A stretch of DNA of 64,000 nucleotides from NCBI GenBank assembly GCA_016432405.1, contig CP066687.1, forward strand, positions 150,281-214,280. Direction: 5' to 3'. Position numbers and translations under genes: made by a program. This DNA comes from Candidatus Giovannonibacteria bacterium. GTDB taxonomy: Bacteria; Patescibacteriota; Minisyncoccia; UBA11713; 2-01-FULL-45-33. The notes under the pieces were generated by a model that was not told where the DNA came from, did not search any database, and was given only the letters and a program-made list of their open reading frames with translations. Shown piece after piece: positions 17,887 through 60,442 of the stretch (its first letter is position 1; the number at the start of each line of letters is the position of its first letter).

Positions 17887-19020
17887 CTATTTCCTCTGCC
17901 TGCGGATGAAGGCGGGGATGGAGTCCCAGTCGGAGTCCTCTTCGGACGCTTGGGGAATCACTTTTTTTGCTCCGTTTTGGGAGGATGTCTGTTGGGCGAT
18001 TTTAGGCGCGGCCTGCTGGGTTACTTTCATCGGCCCGAAAAGCGTCGCCGATTTGCCGACATGGTCGTCCGGGAAGCCGGAGGCGATGACCGTTATTTTT
18101 ATGTCTCCTTTTTTAAGCCGTTCGTCCTGAATCGCGCCGAAAATCACTTTGGCGTCTTGGTCTATTGAAGAGGTGATAATTTTCGCGGCCTCGTTTATCT
18201 CCCACATTGTAAGGTCCGGCCCGCCGGAGACGGCGAAAAGCACTCCGCGCGCGCCGTTTATGGAAATATCCAAAAGAGGGGAGCTGACCGCCGCCCGGGC
18301 GGCTTCTTCGGCGCGCGCTTCGCCGCGCCCCAAGCCGATGCCCATGAGCGCGCTTCCTGCGTTTTGCATGACGGCGCGGACGTCGGCGAAATCAACGTTG
18401 ATTACTCCCGGGACGGTTATGAGGTCGGAGATGCCTTCAACCGCGTGGCGTAAAACTTCGTCGCACATGGCGAAAGCGGAAAGAAACGGAGTGCTCTTGG
18501 CGACAATAGAAAGCAGTTTGTCGTTTGGAATTACAATCAGCGCGTCCACCGCTTCGCGGAGCTTGATTAGCCCTCCTTCGGCAATGCGAGAGCGCTCCAG
18601 CCCCTCAAAAGCGAAGGGCTTGGTGACGACTCCGATAGCCAGCGCGCCATCTGCTTTGGCGGCTTGGGCGACTATCGGCGCCGCGCCTGTGCCCGTCCCT
18701 CCGCCCATCCCGCAGGTTATAAAAACCATGTCCGCGCCCTTGAGCGCCTCGTGGATTTCGTCTTTTGTTTCTTCAGCGGCCTGCCTGCCAAGCTCCGCGT
18801 TCATTCCTGTGCCAAGCCCTTTGGTTATTTCTTTGCCTATCCTGATTTTTTTATGCGCCAAGCTTTGGTGCAGGTCCTGCGCGTCTGTATTTACGGCAAT
18901 AAATTCCACACCGCGCACTTTGGAGCGTATCATGTGGTTCACGGCGTTTCTGCCGGAGCCGCCAACGCCTACGACTTTAATTCTGGCAAAAGATTCAATA
19001 TCTGGTTTAATATGCGGCAT
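17887..19020 (-). CDS. ftsZ: Cell division protein FtsZ
   Basis: GGGTGTG tubulin signature, 377 aa. Confidence 0.95.
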   Translation of the reverse strand: MPHIKPDIESFARIKVVGVGGSGRNAVNHMIRSKVRGVEFIAVNTDAQDLHQSLAHKKIRIGKEITKGLGTGMNAELGRQAAEETKDEIHEALKGADMVFITCGMGGGTGTGAAPIVAQAAKADGALAIGVVTKPFAFEGLERSRIAEGGLIKLREAVDALIVIPNDKLLSIVAKSTPFLSAFAMCDEVLRHAVEGISDLITVPGVINVDFADVRAVMQNAGSALMGIGLGRGEARAEEAARAAVSSPLLDISINGARGVLFAVSGGPDLTMWEINEAAKIITSSIDQDAKVIFGAIQDERLKKGDIKITVIASGFPDDHVGKSATLFGPMKVTQQAAPKIAQQTSSQNGAKKVIPQASEEDSDWDSIPAFIRRQRK

Positions 19021-19075: not shown

Positions 19076-19116
19076 GGTTGACCCCCACACCAAAACGTGT
19101 TGGTGTGGGGGTTGAC
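19076..19116. repeat. REP/MITE-like palindromic element (CCCCCACACCAA…TTGGTGTGGGGG) flanked by GGTTGAC direct repeats; copy 1
   Basis: 13-bp perfect inverted arms in ftsA-ftsZ intergenic region; second copy at 52862-52890. Confidence 0.6.
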
Positions 19117-19120
19117 GCAA

Positions 19121-20335
19121 CTACGGTAAAAAGGCGCGGAGCCAGTGGAAGAGCGAACCCGAGCGGCCGCGGAAAAATGGCGAGGTGCTGGAATTTTGGT
19201 CCAAAGCCGTAAGCGCGGCGCCGACAGCGACCGACCAGGCCGGATTTTTAACTTTTTCTTTGAACCCCCCCAAATTTTCCGGCTCGGCGACTCTGGCGTG
19301 GAGCTTAAGCCGCTCCCTCGCTAAAATTTCTATGCCCGGCAAGTTCGCGCCTCCGCCCACGAGCGCCACGCCGGAAGCCAAAAGCCCGGCGCGCTCGTAT
19401 TTTTTTAAATGTTTTTCCGCGAGCTCAAAAATATCGTCCAGCCGCGCTTCTATTATTTCAGAAAGCTTTTTTTTGGAGTAAGCTCCGTAAACTAAATCCT
19501 CTCCGCCGCGCGAAGTTTTTTTGGGCGGCGCGCTTTCTTGGCGCAGAGAACCGTAATTTATTTTTAACTTCTCCGCTTCTTCAAGCGTGGTGCGGAATCC
19601 CGTCGCGATGTCGTGGGTAATATTGGCCGACCCGAAAGGAAGAACCTCCAGCGAATAAGGGAGCCCTTCTTCAAATAAAATGATTGAGGTGGTGTTTGAG
19701 CCGATGTCCATTAGCATCACACCGACCTCTTTTTCCCGCTCGCTCAAAACCGCTTTCGCCGCCGCCAAGGGGCTCGCGATGACCTCTTCTATATTCACAT
19801 CCGCCTCATCAAAGGCCTTTATGGCGTTTTTTAGGGCTTGTGAAAAAGCGGTAACGAACAAAACTTCCGCTTCCAGCCGGATTCCCAACAGCCCCACCGG
19901 GTCGCGCGCCACAATTTCGTTATCCACGCGGTAGATGACCGGGAATTTATGCAGGACTTCCTTATTTTGCAACCTGCTTAAATTGGTTTCGCTCGCCTGC
20001 ACTGCTCTGGAGGCGTCTTCTTTGGTAATCTCGCCGTCGGCGCGCGATACCGCGACCAGCCCTTTTGATTTTTGAAAAGCAAGCCCGGCGCCGCCGATGC
20101 CGATGTGCGCGCCGCGGCTTTTTATGCCGGTTGATTTCTCCAGCGCCCTCACGGCTTCTTTAACCGCCCGCCCTGCTTCCTCCGGCTCGGTGATTGTCCC
20201 TTTTCTGATTCCTTTTCCGAGCGCCGCGCCGACGCCGACTACCCGCGCCGCGCTTTCTCCGGGGACGGTCTCAATGGCGACCGCCTTGACCGAATCCGTG
20301 CCCAAATCTATTCCGATTGCTCCCGATTGGCGCAT
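19121..20335 (-). CDS. ftsA: Cell division protein FtsA
   Basis: Actin-like ATPase motifs IGIDLGT…, 404 aa, upstream of ftsZ. Confidence 0.9.
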   Translation of the reverse strand: MRQSGAIGIDLGTDSVKAVAIETVPGESAARVVGVGAALGKGIRKGTITEPEEAGRAVKEAVRALEKSTGIKSRGAHIGIGGAGLAFQKSKGLVAVSRADGEITKEDASRAVQASETNLSRLQNKEVLHKFPVIYRVDNEIVARDPVGLLGIRLEAEVLFVTAFSQALKNAIKAFDEADVNIEEVIASPLAAAKAVLSEREKEVGVMLMDIGSNTTSIILFEEGLPYSLEVLPFGSANITHDIATGFRTTLEEAEKLKINYGSLRQESAPPKKTSRGGEDLVYGAYSKKKLSEIIEARLDDIFELAEKHLKKYERAGLLASGVALVGGGANLPGIEILARERLKLHARVAEPENLGGFKEKVKNPAWSVAVGAALTALDQNSSTSPFFRGRSGSLFHWLRAFLP

Positions 20336-25051: not shown

Positions 25052-25085
25052 TTAACAAACTTGACCGATCGGCATAGTTTGTTAA
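25052..25085. promoter_or_regulatory. 34-nt inverted-repeat element TTAACAAAC-TTGACCGATCGG-N4-GTTTGTTAA (copy 1), overlapping a TTGACC-N17-AATAAT promoter
   Basis: In divergent intergenic region 11 nt upstream of PaaX-like gene; near-identical copies at 25650 and 60398. Confidence 0.55.
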
Positions 25086-25647: not shown

Positions 25648-25649
25648 AC

Positions 25650-25683
25650 TTAACAAACTTGACCGATCGGTAAGGTTTGTTAA
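25650..25683. repeat. 34-nt inverted-repeat element, copy 2 (TTAACAAACTTGACCGATCGGTAAGGTTTGTTAA)
   Basis: Starts 3 nt after PaaX-like stop codon. Confidence 0.55.
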
Positions 25684-25782
25684 GTCGTGACACAAATAAA
25701 AAAGCGCAGGGTTATTCAACCAATGCGCTATCGCAAAACTCGAGACGTCGGCTTATGCTCGGGTATGCGTATGGCACTCTCT

Positions 25783-51433: not shown

Positions 51434-53671
51434 ATGAAAGGTGAGCTCAAAAAGCCCGTAATTTTTGTTTTTTCTACTGCCTACTTGCCGTTCATCGGCG
51501 GAGCTGAGGTTGCGATTGAACAAGTTGCGAAAAGATTCAAAGACATGTTTGATTTTGTTATTTTTACTTCCCGGATGCGCGGAGATTTGCCGACAATGGA
51601 AGTCAGAAGCGAGGGGTTGGTGATTAGAGTTGGATTCGGAAATAAATTTGATAAATTTTTGCTTTTGTTTTTTGGATGGTTTAGGGCATTACGAGAGCTG
51701 AAAAAACGCCGCGGTAGAATGATTTTTTGGGTTATGGATTTTTCGTTCGGCGCTGCAGTTGCCGGGTTTTTGAAAATTTTTTATCCCAAGATTCCTCTGG
51801 TTTTCACAATTCAATACGGCTACGGAGAGGAAAGGGTAGCTAGGGGCAGGTTCGGGCTTATGAATTTGGCGTTTCGGCTTATTTTAATGCAAGCGGATTA
51901 TGTCACCGCGATTTCAAATTATTTGCTTGATTTGTGCAAGCAGTACGGTTATATCGGCGAGGAGGCGGTGATACATAACGGGGTGGATTTAAAAAAGTTT
52001 ACGAATCAAGAATCACGATTAGAAAATCGTGTGATAATTTCAACCTCACGGCGGGTTTACAAAAATGGTTTGGATATTCTGGAGAAGGCATTTGAAATTG
52101 TAAAAAAGAAATTTCCGGATGCCGAGTTGAAAATTATTAGTGACATTCCATATGATGAATTGCCTAAGTATTTATGGAAAGCCCATATTTTCGTCAGACC
52201 CTCGCGCTCGGAGGGGATGGGCAACGCTTTTGTTGAGGCGCTGGCAGCCGGGTTGCCGATTGTCGGCACGCCGGTCGGCGGAATTTTGGATATTATAAAA
52301 GACGGCGAGACGGGGCTTTTCGCGAAAGTGGACGACCCGAAAGATTTGGCTGAAAAAATTAAAATTTTGTTGGCGGATAAGGCGCTGGCGCGAAAAATTG
52401 TTGAAAACGGCAGAAAAATGGTTGAGGAAAGGTTTGATTGGAACAAAATCGCGCAAAATTACTCGGATATATTTAATCACGAACTTAATCTTAAAAAACG
52501 TGTTTTAATTGCGACCGGAATTTTTCCTCCAGAAGCCGGCGGACCAGCCACTTACAGCAAAATTCTGCTGGACGAGCTGCCGAAAAAAAACTTTGGAGCG
52601 AGGGTTTTGAATTTCAGGTCAGTTCGGCGCTGGCCGAAAATAATTCGCCATTTTATTTATGGCTTGAAGCTTATGGCTTACGGCAGAAATGCCGATATCA
52701 TCTTCGCGCAGGATCCGGTGAGCGTGGGGCTAGCTGCTGCAATTGCTGCAAAAATTCTGCGCAAGAAATTTTTGCTCAAAATCGTCGGCGATTACGCTTG
52801 GGAGCAGGGAGTCCAGCGGTTCGGAGTCAAGGAAGTTTTAGACGAATTTTTGAAAAATAAACCCCCACACCAAAAATTTTGGTGTGGGGGTAAATATCGG
52901 TGGGAAGTTGAGCTTTTGCGCAAGGTACAGAAATTTGTCGCCAACCGCGCGGAGAAAATCGTTGTGCCTAGTGAGTATTTAAGAAAAGTTGTTAGGCAAT
53001 GGGGTATTAATCATGATAACATTCATGTTGTTTACAATACTTTTGAGTGGCCAACGAACCTTGTTAAACCGGGCTTTAGGGATTACAAATCTGATAAACA
53101 AGATTATTTACAAAATCCAATTAAGTTTAAAAATAAAAAACGAGTTCTTTTGTCGGCTGGTAGATTGGTTCCATGGAAGGGATTTTCTGCACTGATTGAG
53201 ATATTGCCGCAATTGTTAAACGATTTTCCTAATTTGAGATTGATTATTGTTGGTTCTGGTCCGGAAAAGGACAAATTGAAATCCCAAGTTATCAATCAGA
53301 AATTAGAAAAAGAGGCAATATTAACTGGTTCTGTGCCACGCCAAGAGTTATTGGAATGTCTTTCTAGCGCCGATGTTTTTGCACTTAATACTGCTTACGA
53401 AGGGTTTTCTCACTTGATTTTAGAAGCAATGGCGCTTGGTGCGCCCATAGTAACAACAAAAGTGGGCGGCAACCCAGAGATTATAAAAGGCGAAAATGGT
53501 TTTTTGGTTGGCTTTAACGACAAAGAGGCTCTTTATCGAAAAATCTACGAGTTATTAACTAATCCCTTTTTGGCCGAAAAATTTTCAAATAATGGTTGTG
53601 CTACAGTGGCGCAATTGGCAAATAAAGAATTTATGCTTAATCATACAATAAACATTTTTAAAGACTTATGA
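51434..53671 (+). CDS. Tandem fusion of two GT4-family (GT-B) glycosyltransferases
   Basis: Two Glycos_transf_1 C-domains (…PSRSEGMGNAFVEALAAGLPIV… and …AYEGFSHLILEAMALGAPIV…), 745 aa. Confidence 0.75.
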   Translation: MKGELKKPVIFVFSTAYLPFIGGAEVAIEQVAKRFKDMFDFVIFTSRMRGDLPTMEVRSEGLVIRVGFGNKFDKFLLLFFGWFRALRELKKRRGRMIFWVMDFSFGAAVAGFLKIFYPKIPLVFTIQYGYGEERVARGRFGLMNLAFRLILMQADYVTAISNYLLDLCKQYGYIGEEAVIHNGVDLKKFTNQESRLENRVIISTSRRVYKNGLDILEKAFEIVKKKFPDAELKIISDIPYDELPKYLWKAHIFVRPSRSEGMGNAFVEALAAGLPIVGTPVGGILDIIKDGETGLFAKVDDPKDLAEKIKILLADKALARKIVENGRKMVEERFDWNKIAQNYSDIFNHELNLKKRVLIATGIFPPEAGGPATYSKILLDELPKKNFGARVLNFRSVRRWPKIIRHFIYGLKLMAYGRNADIIFAQDPVSVGLAAAIAAKILRKKFLLKIVGDYAWEQGVQRFGVKEVLDEFLKNKPPHQKFWCGGKYRWEVELLRKVQKFVANRAEKIVVPSEYLRKVVRQWGINHDNIHVVYNTFEWPTNLVKPGFRDYKSDKQDYLQNPIKFKNKKRVLLSAGRLVPWKGFSALIEILPQLLNDFPNLRLIIVGSGPEKDKLKSQVINQKLEKEAILTGSVPRQELLECLSSADVFALNTAYEGFSHLILEAMALGAPIVTTKVGGNPEIIKGENGFLVGFNDKEALYRKIYELLTNPFLAEKFSNNGCATVAQLANKEFMLNHTINIFKDL
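52862..52890. repeat. REP/MITE-like palindromic element, copy 2 (CCCCCACACCAAAA-A-TTTTGGTGTGGGGG), inside glycosyltransferase CDS in frame
   Basis: 14-bp perfect arms; shares arms with copy at 19081-19112; flanked by AAATA-like direct repeats. Confidence 0.6.
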
Positions 53672-54723
53672 GGGTTTTCATGATAAGCGGGGATCCGGGG
53701 GTTTTAGAACCGCAATCGGAGACCGGAAAAAGAACGGAAGAATATCGCAAAGCCCTCGGCAAGCTGGATGTTTTGGTTTGCCGCGGAAGTATTTTTAGTT
53801 TTATTTTCGGGTTTTTGGGAGGACTTAAAATACTTTGGCGCAATAAGTACGATGTGATTACGGCGCAAGATGTGGAGCACACGCTTCTGGCATGGGTATT
53901 TTCAAAATTTTTCAAAACCCCGTTTCAAATGCAAATACACGCCGATATTATGAGCCCGTATTTTCGGCGGGAATCGCTTAAAAATAAAATCCGCGTCGCG
54001 CTCGCAAAATTTTTAGTCCCGCGCGCGGATTGCGCGCGGGTGGTTTCGGAGAGAATTAAAAATTCAATTTTAAGGACGTCGGACGTCCGTTCGGACGTCC
54101 GACGTCCAATAATTGTTCTCTCAATTTTCGTTGACACAGAAAAAATCAAAAACTCGCCAATCAAAACCGATTTGCACAAAAAATATCCCGGGCGGTTTAT
54201 AATTTTGATGGCGTCGCGGATAACAAAAGAAAAAAATATCGGATTGGCGATTGAGGCAGTGAAGGGGCTAATAACCCACCCCTTAAACCCTCTACTTCTC
54301 ATTGTTGGAGACGGGCCGGAGATTGAAAATTTAAAATTTAAAACTTACAAGCTGGGGCTGAATGAAAATATCGTTTTTGAGCCGCATACTGACGATTTAA
54401 TCTCTTACTATAAAACCTGCGATTTATTTTTACTGACCTCAAATTACGAAGGATATGGGCGCACTCTGGTTGAGGCCGCTGCCGCGTCAAACGCGGTTGG
54501 CACAGCGGGGGCGAAAATTATATCAAGCGACGTCGGCATCGCGCCGGAAATTTTGGAGCCGGAATGTATTTTCAAAGTCGGCGACAAAAATAATTTAATT
54601 GAAAAATTAAATTCAGTTTTCTTGGGTAACATCAAGACACCGAAACTACTTGTTTCTCAAACAAAAGAGGATTATTTAGGGTTATATAAAAGCAGTTTTG
54701 AGGTATGCGCTCATAAAAAATGA
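53668..54723 (+). CDS. GT4-family glycosyltransferase
   Basis: …TSNYEGYGRTLVEAAAASNAV… Glycos_transf_1 signature. Confidence 0.7.
   Translation: MRVFMISGDPGVLEPQSETGKRTEEYRKALGKLDVLVCRGSIFSFIFGFLGGLKILWRNKYDVITAQDVEHTLLAWVFSKFFKTPFQMQIHADIMSPYFRRESLKNKIRVALAKFLVPRADCARVVSERIKNSILRTSDVRSDVRRPIIVLSIFVDTEKIKNSPIKTDLHKKYPGRFIILMASRITKEKNIGLAIEAVKGLITHPLNPLLLIVGDGPEIENLKFKTYKLGLNENIVFEPHTDDLISYYKTCDLFLLTSNYEGYGRTLVEAAAASNAVGTAGAKIISSDVGIAPEILEPECIFKVGDKNNLIEKLNSVFLGNIKTPKLLVSQTKEDYLGLYKSSFEVCAHKK
54074..54107. repeat. 34-nt perfect GC-rich palindrome (GGACGTCGGACGTCCG-TT-CGGACGTCCGACGTCC) inside GT4 CDS
   Basis: 16-bp perfect arms, built from GACGTC units; encodes RTSDVRSDVRRP in frame. Confidence 0.7.
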
Positions 54724-60397: not shown

Positions 60398-60431
60398 TTA
60401 ACAAACTTGACCGATCGGATGAACTTGTTAA
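60398..60431. repeat. 34-nt inverted-repeat element, copy 3 (TTAACAAACTTGACCGATCGGATGAACTTGTTAA)
   Basis: Between convergent gene ends in glycosylation locus; 29/34 identical to copies at 25052 and 25650. Confidence 0.55.
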
Positions 60432-60442
60432 ATTTTTCTTTT

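Follow-up and report, generated by a model that had tools for sequence, protein, structure and literature searches.

The stretch of Candidatus Giovannonibacteria DNA analysed here (the window, 64,000 nucleotides) contains two palindromes, one in the spacer between ftsA and ftsZ and the other in frame within a gene that encodes two fused GT4 glycosyltransferase modules; at both places the sequence is as the original prediction described it. The elements, the target-site duplications (TSDs) that abut them and the neighbouring genes (identified with Pfam) are as follows.

17887..19020, reverse strand: ftsZ, downstream neighbour of copy 1
19078..19081, no strand: left TSD copy of copy 1, TTGA (TCAA on the coding strand)
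19082..19111, no strand: hairpin element copy 1, 30 bp, CCCCCACACCAAAACGTGTTGGTGTGGGGG, of the form C5ACACCAA-AACGTG-TTGGTGTG5, in the ftsA-ftsZ spacer
19112..19115, no strand: right TSD copy of copy 1, TTGA
19121..20335, reverse strand: ftsA, upstream neighbour of copy 1
51434..53671, forward strand: gene that hosts copy 2, encoding 745 aa with two fused GT4 glycosyltransferase modules
52858..52861, no strand: left TSD copy of copy 2, TAAA
52862..52890, no strand: hairpin element copy 2, 29 bp, CCCCCACACCAAAAATTTTGGTGTGGGGG, of the form C5ACACCAAAA-A-TTTTGGTGTG5, in frame in the GT4 gene
52891..52894, no strand: right TSD copy of copy 2, TAAA

The arms of copy 1 match perfectly over 13 nt, the outer A/T pair included, and those of copy 2 over 14–15 nt. 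At the base composition of the window, 64 kb should by chance contain ~0.009 hairpins whose arms reach 13 nt or more, and the 15-nt arm should recur ~7e-5 times; with expectations this low, the two palindromes represent a repeat family and not a coincidence. As RNA, the copies fold with energies of -28.8 and -25.8 kcal/mol (z-scores of -4.3 and -6.0), and as DNA the hairpins reach -17.5 and -16.9 kcal/mol. Direct repeats had been proposed on both sides of each element, and duplications are indeed present, but they are 4 bp long (T-W-W-A), neither 7 bp nor AAATA-like. The GGTTGAC repeat named for copy 1 can be read in the sequence, although its GG overlaps the terminal G run of the element itself, and the duplication proper is TTGA.

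The copy 1 hairpin sits 58 nt 5′ of the ftsZ start codon, and an effect on processing or translation of the ftsZ mRNA is possible. A reading as an intrinsic terminator was dropped because no T-tract follows the hairpin: the coding strand after the main hairpin reads TCAACCTTGCGC, and a terminator scan gave only a weaker alternative stem. Rfam searches of the window and eight related loci returned no family matching the element. Copy 2 is translated in the frame of its host gene as KPPHQKFWCGG. Its inserted length, 29 bp plus the 4-bp duplication, amounts to 33 bp or 11 codons, and the extra residues fall in a length-variable loop of the N-terminal domain of the second GT4 module, where an alignment of homologues shows natural indels; the reading frame stays open.

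Empty sites were found in relatives at both loci. With the second GT4 module as query, 120 homologues of 45–62% identity were aligned, and all 120 lack exactly the 11 residues KPPHQKFWCGG; one of them (P0028) has LDDFLKN-KYRWEVELLRK at the position of LDEFLKN[KPPHQKFWCGG]KYRWEVELLRK in the window. At the DNA level, a Giovannonibacteria relative (L221, GCA_030699445.1) is empty, has a single TAAA and reads GAAAAATAAATAC. Its sequence TTTTTGAAAAA-TAAA-TACAAATGG corresponds to TTTTTGAAAAA-TAAA-[29 bp]-TAAA-TATCGGTGG in the window, with core letters at the junction of GAAAAA-TAAA-TAC and GAAAAA-TAAA-[29 bp]-TAAA-TAT, respectively.

For the ftsA-ftsZ spacer, the FtsA encoded in the window matches a Candidatus Giovannonibacteria FtsA at NCBI with 100% identity, and all 13 contigs encoding the identical protein retain copy 1, hence none of them offers an empty site. 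A Giovannonibacteria relative with an FtsA of 84% identity (L127) lacks copy 1, carries a single TCAA and has a 76-nt spacer. On the coding strand, it reads G-TCAA-GGTTGCGC versus G-TCAA-[30 bp]-TCAA-CCTTGCGC in the window or, over a longer stretch, …G-TCAA-GGTTGCGCC… versus …G-TCAA-[30 bp]-TCAA-CCTTGCGCA…, and the sequence downstream of the insertion site is well conserved between the two. In a relative with 73% identity the spacer is just 28 nt long. Because the sites in relatives are empty and hold one 4-mer, both window copies are insertions that duplicated 4 bp, and we regard it as firmly shown that the two palindromes are insertions of a mobile DNA hairpin. Orthologous loci are polymorphic in length at both positions, so that ancestral sequence, which had been named as the refuting outcome, does not account for them; the empty sites, the TSDs and the open GT4 frame bear out the idea of a mobile palindrome able to enter coding sequence without disrupting it.

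A dispersed family of 26–38-bp hairpins

A scan of 185,579 species-representative genomes with the pattern CCCCACACCAA-N(0-14)-TTGGTGTGGGG recovered the same hairpin, C5ACACCAA…TTGGTGTG5, at no fewer than 120 loci; these span many phyla, with Patescibacteria in the majority. The family is thereby common among ultra-small bacteria of groundwater. Of 80 record titles among the matches listed, about 50 named Patescibacteria (Candidate Phyla Radiation, CPR), including Parcubacteria, Saccharibacteria, Microgenomates, Giovannonibacteria and others; further host labels among these matches were Omnitrophota, Elusimicrobia, Planctomycetes, Deltaproteobacteria, Nitrospira, Gammaproteobacteria, Nanoarchaeota and one Bacillus. 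Misbinning may make the host range look wider than it is, yet several copies have G+C-rich flanks unlike Patescibacteria DNA. The same element recurs in independent assemblies from many studies. A scan of 2.9 million viral contigs in IMG/VR gave 2 matches, which argues that the element is not mainly phage-borne. A full-text literature search with the arm sequence returned unrelated primers only, and the literature on CPR MITEs or palindromic elements and on GIY-YIG transposons yielded no description of these hairpins; the family is widespread and undescribed in the literature searched. A likeness of the arms to the tRNA 3′ end (acceptor stem plus ACCA) found no support and was dropped.

We aligned 125 copies from the matches listed on their palindromes, and the anatomy given here refers to this set. 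The element proper is C5ACACC(A/T)(A/T)…G5, 26–38 bp in length with a mode of 29 bp and a loop of 0–6 nt. It is a near-perfect palindrome whose ends, 5′-CCCCCACACC(A/T)(A/T)…GGTGTGGGGG-3′, are conserved over the outer 10–12 nt across copies from at least 120 loci. The inner part varies in both sequence and length and remains palindromic, with 67 distinct variants among the matches listed; the variant in the GT4 gene is the commonest of these (12 loci). The left flank has the composition N-T-W-W-A-C, the right flank G-T-W-W-A-Y. Immediately outside C5…G5, the 4-bp duplication is perfect in 41 of 93 copies among the matches listed and has one mismatch in a further 20, while four shifted controls gave 0–2 perfect repeats in 93 (p=6e-13); its consensus is T-W-W-A, and TAAA, TTTA and TATA are the favoured 4-mers. 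Longer versions of 53–340 bp agree with the hairpins in their ends and 4-bp duplications, and at one locus (L088) a small hairpin with its own duplication is nested within a 129-bp relative. A 100–150-bp repeat that contains the hairpin and encodes no transposase was also seen in a MAG labelled Nitrospira.

Residence within genes is frequent in this family. Among the matches listed, 29 of 125 copies lie within reading stretches that stay open for 150 codons or more, and the combined length of element and duplication is a multiple of 3 in 24 of these 29 intragenic copies as compared with 48 of 96 elsewhere (p=0.0013). C and A are the only bases of the left arm (no T or G), and G and T the only bases of the right arm (no A or C); owing to this composition the arms are free of stop codons on either strand. 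Frame readings through the listed elements are stop-free in 723 of 750 cases (~96%). Stop-free arms, together with a length of 29 bp that a 4-bp TSD brings to 11 codons, explain how copies survive within genes, the GT4 gene among them.

GIY-YIG genes between matching arms

Clustering of the ORFs in 0.9 Mb around 120 hairpin loci (matches listed) revealed no enriched protein family, transposases included; the top clusters were GT2, ABC ATPase, epimerase, Mur ligase, tyrosine recombinase and similar proteins, each at 8 loci or fewer. A search for a longer, autonomous element, defined by two ends 45–4000 bp apart with matching duplications, returned only the 53–340-bp versions and pairs of separate hairpins. 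At two loci (L102:379-638 and L089:1309-1608) the arms surround one small ORF, in which Pfam recognises the GIY-YIG catalytic domain only (PF01541). Homologues of the 76-aa protein from the first of these were found in unrelated contexts: beside aconitase, pilZ and pilMN, and between rpsD and rpoA. In five independent contexts the gene for this 76-aa protein is always bracketed by CCCCACACCCAGCA … TGCTGGGTGTGGGG, and one copy has the matched arm variant CCCCTCACTCAGCT/AGCTGAGTGAGGGG.

A metagenome scan for Patescibacteria-type GIY-YIG genes of ~84 aa yielded 80 loci, 72 of them with enough flanking sequence. Perfect inverted repeats of 10–24 nt bracket 51 of these 72 genes, as against 0 of 72 with shuffled downstream flanks (p=2e-22); the other 21 have no bracketing repeat, which counts against a role of GIY-YIG genes in this family. 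The arms of most units begin (A)CCCCCACACC, and in subfamilies the two arms change together, as in CCCCTCACC/GGTGAGGGG, CCCCGCACC/GGTGCGGGG and CCCCACACT/AGTGTGGGG; further arm subfamilies are CCCCCCACC/GGTGGGGGG and ACCCCGTTAGAGAT. Units are 268–367 bp long and carry one gene of ~80 aa (76–95 aa) with a single domain. They show a 4-bp duplication of their own, perfect in 13 of 37 and with one mismatch in another 10, with 0 of 37 perfect in the control. The ORF is intact in 79 of 80 loci, and conservation of the catalytic residues (Y, Y-x-G, R, H and E) is 96–100%. In the PDB the closest sequences are UPF0213 BH0048 (E=6e-8), EF2693 and Slx1, the UPF0213 entries being 1ZG2 and 1YWL.

At three loci (L141, L165 and L190) small hairpins that lie beside a GIY-YIG unit carry the subfamily-specific inner arms of that unit; hairpin and unit share CCCCACACTTAATT at L165 and CCCCACACCTAATG at L190. 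That the hairpin family shares its ends with units which encode a GIY-YIG protein, and which are themselves inserted, is firmly shown. The small hairpins are quite likely ORF-less derivatives of these units, and some of them could be remnants left in place by ORF-carrying units and not independently mobile. The 64-kb window itself holds no GIY-YIG gene.

Known palindromic elements and possible routes of mobilisation

Several classes of short repeat resemble these hairpins in part. Rickettsia palindromic elements (RPEs) are palindromic repeats of ~100–150 bp that lie in frame in protein-coding genes and are tolerated as an extra peptide. The hairpins share with them insertion into ORFs that stay open, as seen in the 11 codons of the GT4 copy and the excess of intragenic lengths divisible by three; they are set apart from RPEs, by description, in size (26–38 bp), sequence and hosts. 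The label MITE-like is apt as regards terminal inverted repeats, TSDs, occurrence in multiple copies, the lack of coding capacity and the existence of longer relatives with the same ends. It fails on size, since MITEs usually measure ~50–500 bp and the window copies 29–30 bp: the hairpins consist of nothing but two ends, with no internal sequence beyond the 0–6-nt loop. The one gene found between matching ends encodes a GIY-YIG nuclease and no recognised transposase. REP elements, which are thought to be spread by RAYT enzymes (IS200/IS605-like Y1 transposases), are likewise short hairpin repeats paired with an enzyme that recognises hairpins in ssDNA. The suggested label REP-like was nonetheless given up, because the GTAG/CGTC tag is absent (the ends are C5/G5, with T-W-W-A flanks on both sides) and the listed copies, with more than a fifth in long open reading stretches, are not confined to intergenic DNA. 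A duplication is also present, unlike in IS200/IS605-type events, which produce none, and the enzyme family is a different one.

The closest published analogue is Ssn with its NTS repeats, which offers a biochemical precedent for a tiny GIY-YIG enzyme that recognises a hairpin. Ssn is a single-domain GIY-YIG protein of ~94 aa (CDD cd10448) that binds its hairpin repeat only in ssDNA and cleaves beside it, leaving dsDNA uncut (Chenal et al., Nat Commun 2025, PMC11893778). The repeats, called NTS in Neisseria and SRM generally, are 20–50 nt long, lie on either side of ssn genes and number in the hundreds; Rickettsia is among the SRM-rich genera, and the authors likened NTS-ssnA-NTS to an insertion sequence (PMC11893778). 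In their account 2% of NTS are intragenic, while duplications, empty sites and Patescibacteria go unreported (PMC11893778). In both systems a single-domain GIY-YIG gene of ~80–95 aa is flanked by hairpin-forming inverted repeats and the hairpin is dispersed in many copies. In the present units, however, the gene interrupts a single hairpin, whose half-sites flank it in the manner of terminal inverted repeats, whereas the Neisseria gene lies between two complete NTS. The hairpin sequence is also unrelated and has no conserved asymmetric 5′ extension: the SRM pattern HGTCWYN(0-2)YYVSBRHN(0-5)WNVSBRGN(0-2)RNCYNB matched none of the 125 hairpins (matches listed) with 20-nt flanks on either strand, and did match an NTS control. 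The present hairpins further differ in their 4-bp duplications, their empty sites, their frequent in-frame intragenic copies and their hosts, drawn from Patescibacteria and further phyla of groundwater. GIY-YIG ORFs have been described, in a 2024 survey, from CPR rRNA-gene insertions that were neither intron- nor homing-like (PMC11270868), which fits the family described here.

On balance we favour reading the window copies as ultra-small transposable hairpins, the ORF-less form of the GIY-YIG units, and probably mobilised in trans. The element inserts into T-W-W-A tetranucleotides, which it duplicates. In single-stranded or cruciform DNA its arms would pair to form a stem-loop, and a GIY-YIG nuclease would recognise the conserved base of the stem and cut next to it. 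The nuclease would be supplied in trans by an ORF-carrying copy at another place in the genome; that the 64-kb window has no such gene makes this an assumption and counts against the model. Host repair or ligation would then complete integration and fill in the 4-nt stagger. We infer the mobilising role of the nuclease, its action on a hairpin in ssDNA and the route of joining; to the proposal that it mobilises the hairpins by cutting at the base of the stem-loop, with host enzymes finishing integration, we give even chances.

GIY-YIG enzymes are hydrolytic nucleases, and we know of no strand-transfer activity among them and of no precedent for DNA joining; for this reason a DDE transposase stays a serious rival. 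The hairpins would then be exceptionally short MITEs of some DDE transposon (IS1380/piggyBac-like or IS5-like) whose transposase would bind the CCCCCACACC ends and make 4-bp staggered cuts, and the GIY-YIG genes would be passengers or parasites within such MITEs. piggyBac and IS1380 have a 4-bp duplication and a CCC…GGG end polarity that match the TTAA-like T-W-W-A duplication and the 5′-CCC…GGG-3′ termini seen here, and the lack of an enzyme gene close by is what mobilisation in trans, the normal mode for MITEs, would give. Yet no DDE transposase lies between matching ends and no transposase family is enriched in the 0.9 Mb around 120 listed copies; no unit of 0.5–4 kb with these ends and matching duplications turned up save pairs of separate hairpins, and the sole ORF that the arms repeatedly bound is the GIY-YIG gene, intact and conserved. 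By our inference, a 29-bp duplex is also too short to hold two ends in one synaptic complex without extreme bending, and inner arms that vary by lineage while remaining perfectly complementary fit pairing of a stem better than binding of a protein to two ends. We therefore consider a DDE transposase an unlikely source of the hairpins.

Another view would have the GIY-YIG genes invade the loops of pre-existing palindromes without mobilising them, as free-standing homing-endonuclease genes, with the palindromes themselves spread by host replication and repair or by an unknown enzyme. GIY-YIG enzymes are classical homing endonucleases, the ORF stands exactly at the loop position between the arms, and the CPR rRNA-gene ORFs in non-intron insertions (PMC11270868) could be read in the same way. 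This is nonetheless improbable: the 76–95-aa proteins consist of the catalytic domain by Pfam, with no DNA-binding domain of the kind used by homing GIY-YIG enzymes; arms of 10–24 nt would be very short homology for recombinational homing; and ORF-carrying units have their own 4-bp duplications at unrelated loci, which indicates that the entity that inserts is the unit with its arms. That the palindromes are ancestral host sequence, serving for instance as a protein-binding site, a terminator or a regulatory RNA hairpin, is hardly credible, and so is an origin by chance or misassembly. Great stability of the hairpins and retention of copy 1 in all contigs with the identical FtsA speak for a host function, but the empty sites at both loci contradict it as they do an artefact; the T-tract is lacking, Rfam is empty and one copy is translated. 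Chance or misassembly is further opposed by expectations of ~1e-2 to 1e-4 and by recurrence of the element in independent assemblies.

Taking the preferred reading of nuclease-mobilised hairpins one step further, we tentatively suggest, with rather more doubt than confidence, that the ~270–370-bp units are an unrecognised class of autonomous DNA transposon, composed of two perfectly complementary arms that begin CCCC(C)ACACC and a gene of ~80 aa for a GIY-YIG protein, and that the 26–38-bp hairpins are its non-autonomous derivatives. The "transposase" would in this case be a GIY-YIG nuclease, hydrolytic and specific for hairpins, with ligation and repair left to the host. Against the known sizes of IS elements, such units would rank among the smallest autonomous mobile elements. 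The hairpins would be the smallest transposable elements that make TSDs, spreading across phyla and seeding in-frame peptide insertions in reduced genomes.

For the Ssn family, transposition has been hypothesised solely from gene architecture. If our reading is correct, the empty sites, fixed 4-bp duplications and nesting constitute direct genomic evidence of transposition by GIY-YIG-linked hairpins, the first, as far as we are aware, for hairpins of this kind. It would also define a minimal requirement in cis, a stem of ~12 bp with a conserved base, next to a minimal candidate enzyme of ~80 aa, and stem and enzyme together would be of interest as tools for ssDNA. Annotation is affected as well, in that insertions of 33 bp give real proteins 11 extra residues and strong hairpins come to lie within operons such as ftsA-ftsZ. 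If correct, the model would account for short, unexplained in-frame and non-intron insertions in Patescibacteria genes, and the hairpin family would allow horizontal exchange between phyla of groundwater to be traced.

Other palindromes in the window

A palindrome is also found in the GT4 gene (53668-54723) that follows the double GT4 gene with the in-frame hairpin copy, and a separate, imperfect palindrome is repeated elsewhere in the window:

54074-54107: 34-bp perfect palindrome, GGACGTCGGACGTCCG-TT-CGGACGTCCGACGTCC
25052-25085, 25648-25685 and about 60400-60435: imperfect palindrome TTAACAAACTTGACCGATCGG…GTTTGTTAA, three copies

The 34-bp palindrome is read in frame as RTSDVRSDVRRP and is flanked by TTTTAA and AATAAT. 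Neither the rest of the window nor the fetched loci (L-numbers, from other genomes or contigs) contain a further copy. The palindrome may be one more case of in-frame palindromic insertion, by a family different from that of the hairpin. In the TTAACAAACTTGACCGATCGG…GTTTGTTAA repeat, of which the copies at 25052 and 25648 are spaced about 600 bp apart, a TTGAC box is followed approximately 17 nt downstream by an A/T-rich hexamer. The repeat has the look of a shared promoter or operator, not of a mobile element.

Structured and composite units in the fetched loci

Among the 72 GIY-YIG loci with enough flank to score bracketing by inverted-repeat arms, 21 have a gene without arms; these may be decayed or domesticated copies. 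The region L064:1936-2700 holds a small hairpin and a GIY-YIG gene that has no recognisable arms, both within what appear, by eye, to be reverse-strand tRNA genes. Sequence related to tRNA was also seen at L119:3047-3157, where a tRNA-like sequence is bracketed by the arm-like CCTCACACCAA and TTGGTGTGGGG, and at L013:6030-6300, where the 3′ portion of a tRNA occurs in tandem repeats, each abutting CCCGACACCAA. In the latter two arrangements, tRNA sequence may have been captured, or the insertion may have occurred beside it.

Larger units are as follows:

L070:1499, L093:2564, L100:6122, L102:4257, L102:379-638 and L132-L140: conserved unit of ~190 nt, longer with an ORF
L094:4369-4520, L117:2484-2636 and L019:15-217: ~150-bp element, ends CCCCACACCTTCCC…GGGAAGGTGTGGGG, TTTA duplicated

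The ~190-nt unit, which probably comes from Omnitrophota, has an outer stem (AAATGAAGCC…GCTCATTAAA), one hairpin per side, and a central stem (GGCTGAATTTGA-CCCCACACC…GGTGTGGGG-TTTAATTCGCA) whose apex is either a short loop or a 76-aa GIY-YIG ORF. Its right end often provides the AAGGAGG ahead of the next gene, and a search of Rfam returned no match for the unit. Nested in the ~150-bp element are two small palindromes with arms of different families, CCCTCCCACCAAA… and CCCCCACACCAACAC….

Viral contigs and the ftsA-ftsZ spacer

In IMG/VR, the hairpin is present on only 2 of 2.9 million contigs, which are viral according to the IMG/VR listing:

L224:1635-1663: hairpin
L225:2488-2516: hairpin

In a Giovannonibacteria relative with a 71% identical FtsA, a 104-aa ORF without a match in Pfam lies between ftsA and ftsZ (L130:3233-3547), which makes the ftsA-ftsZ spacer a place where change recurs.
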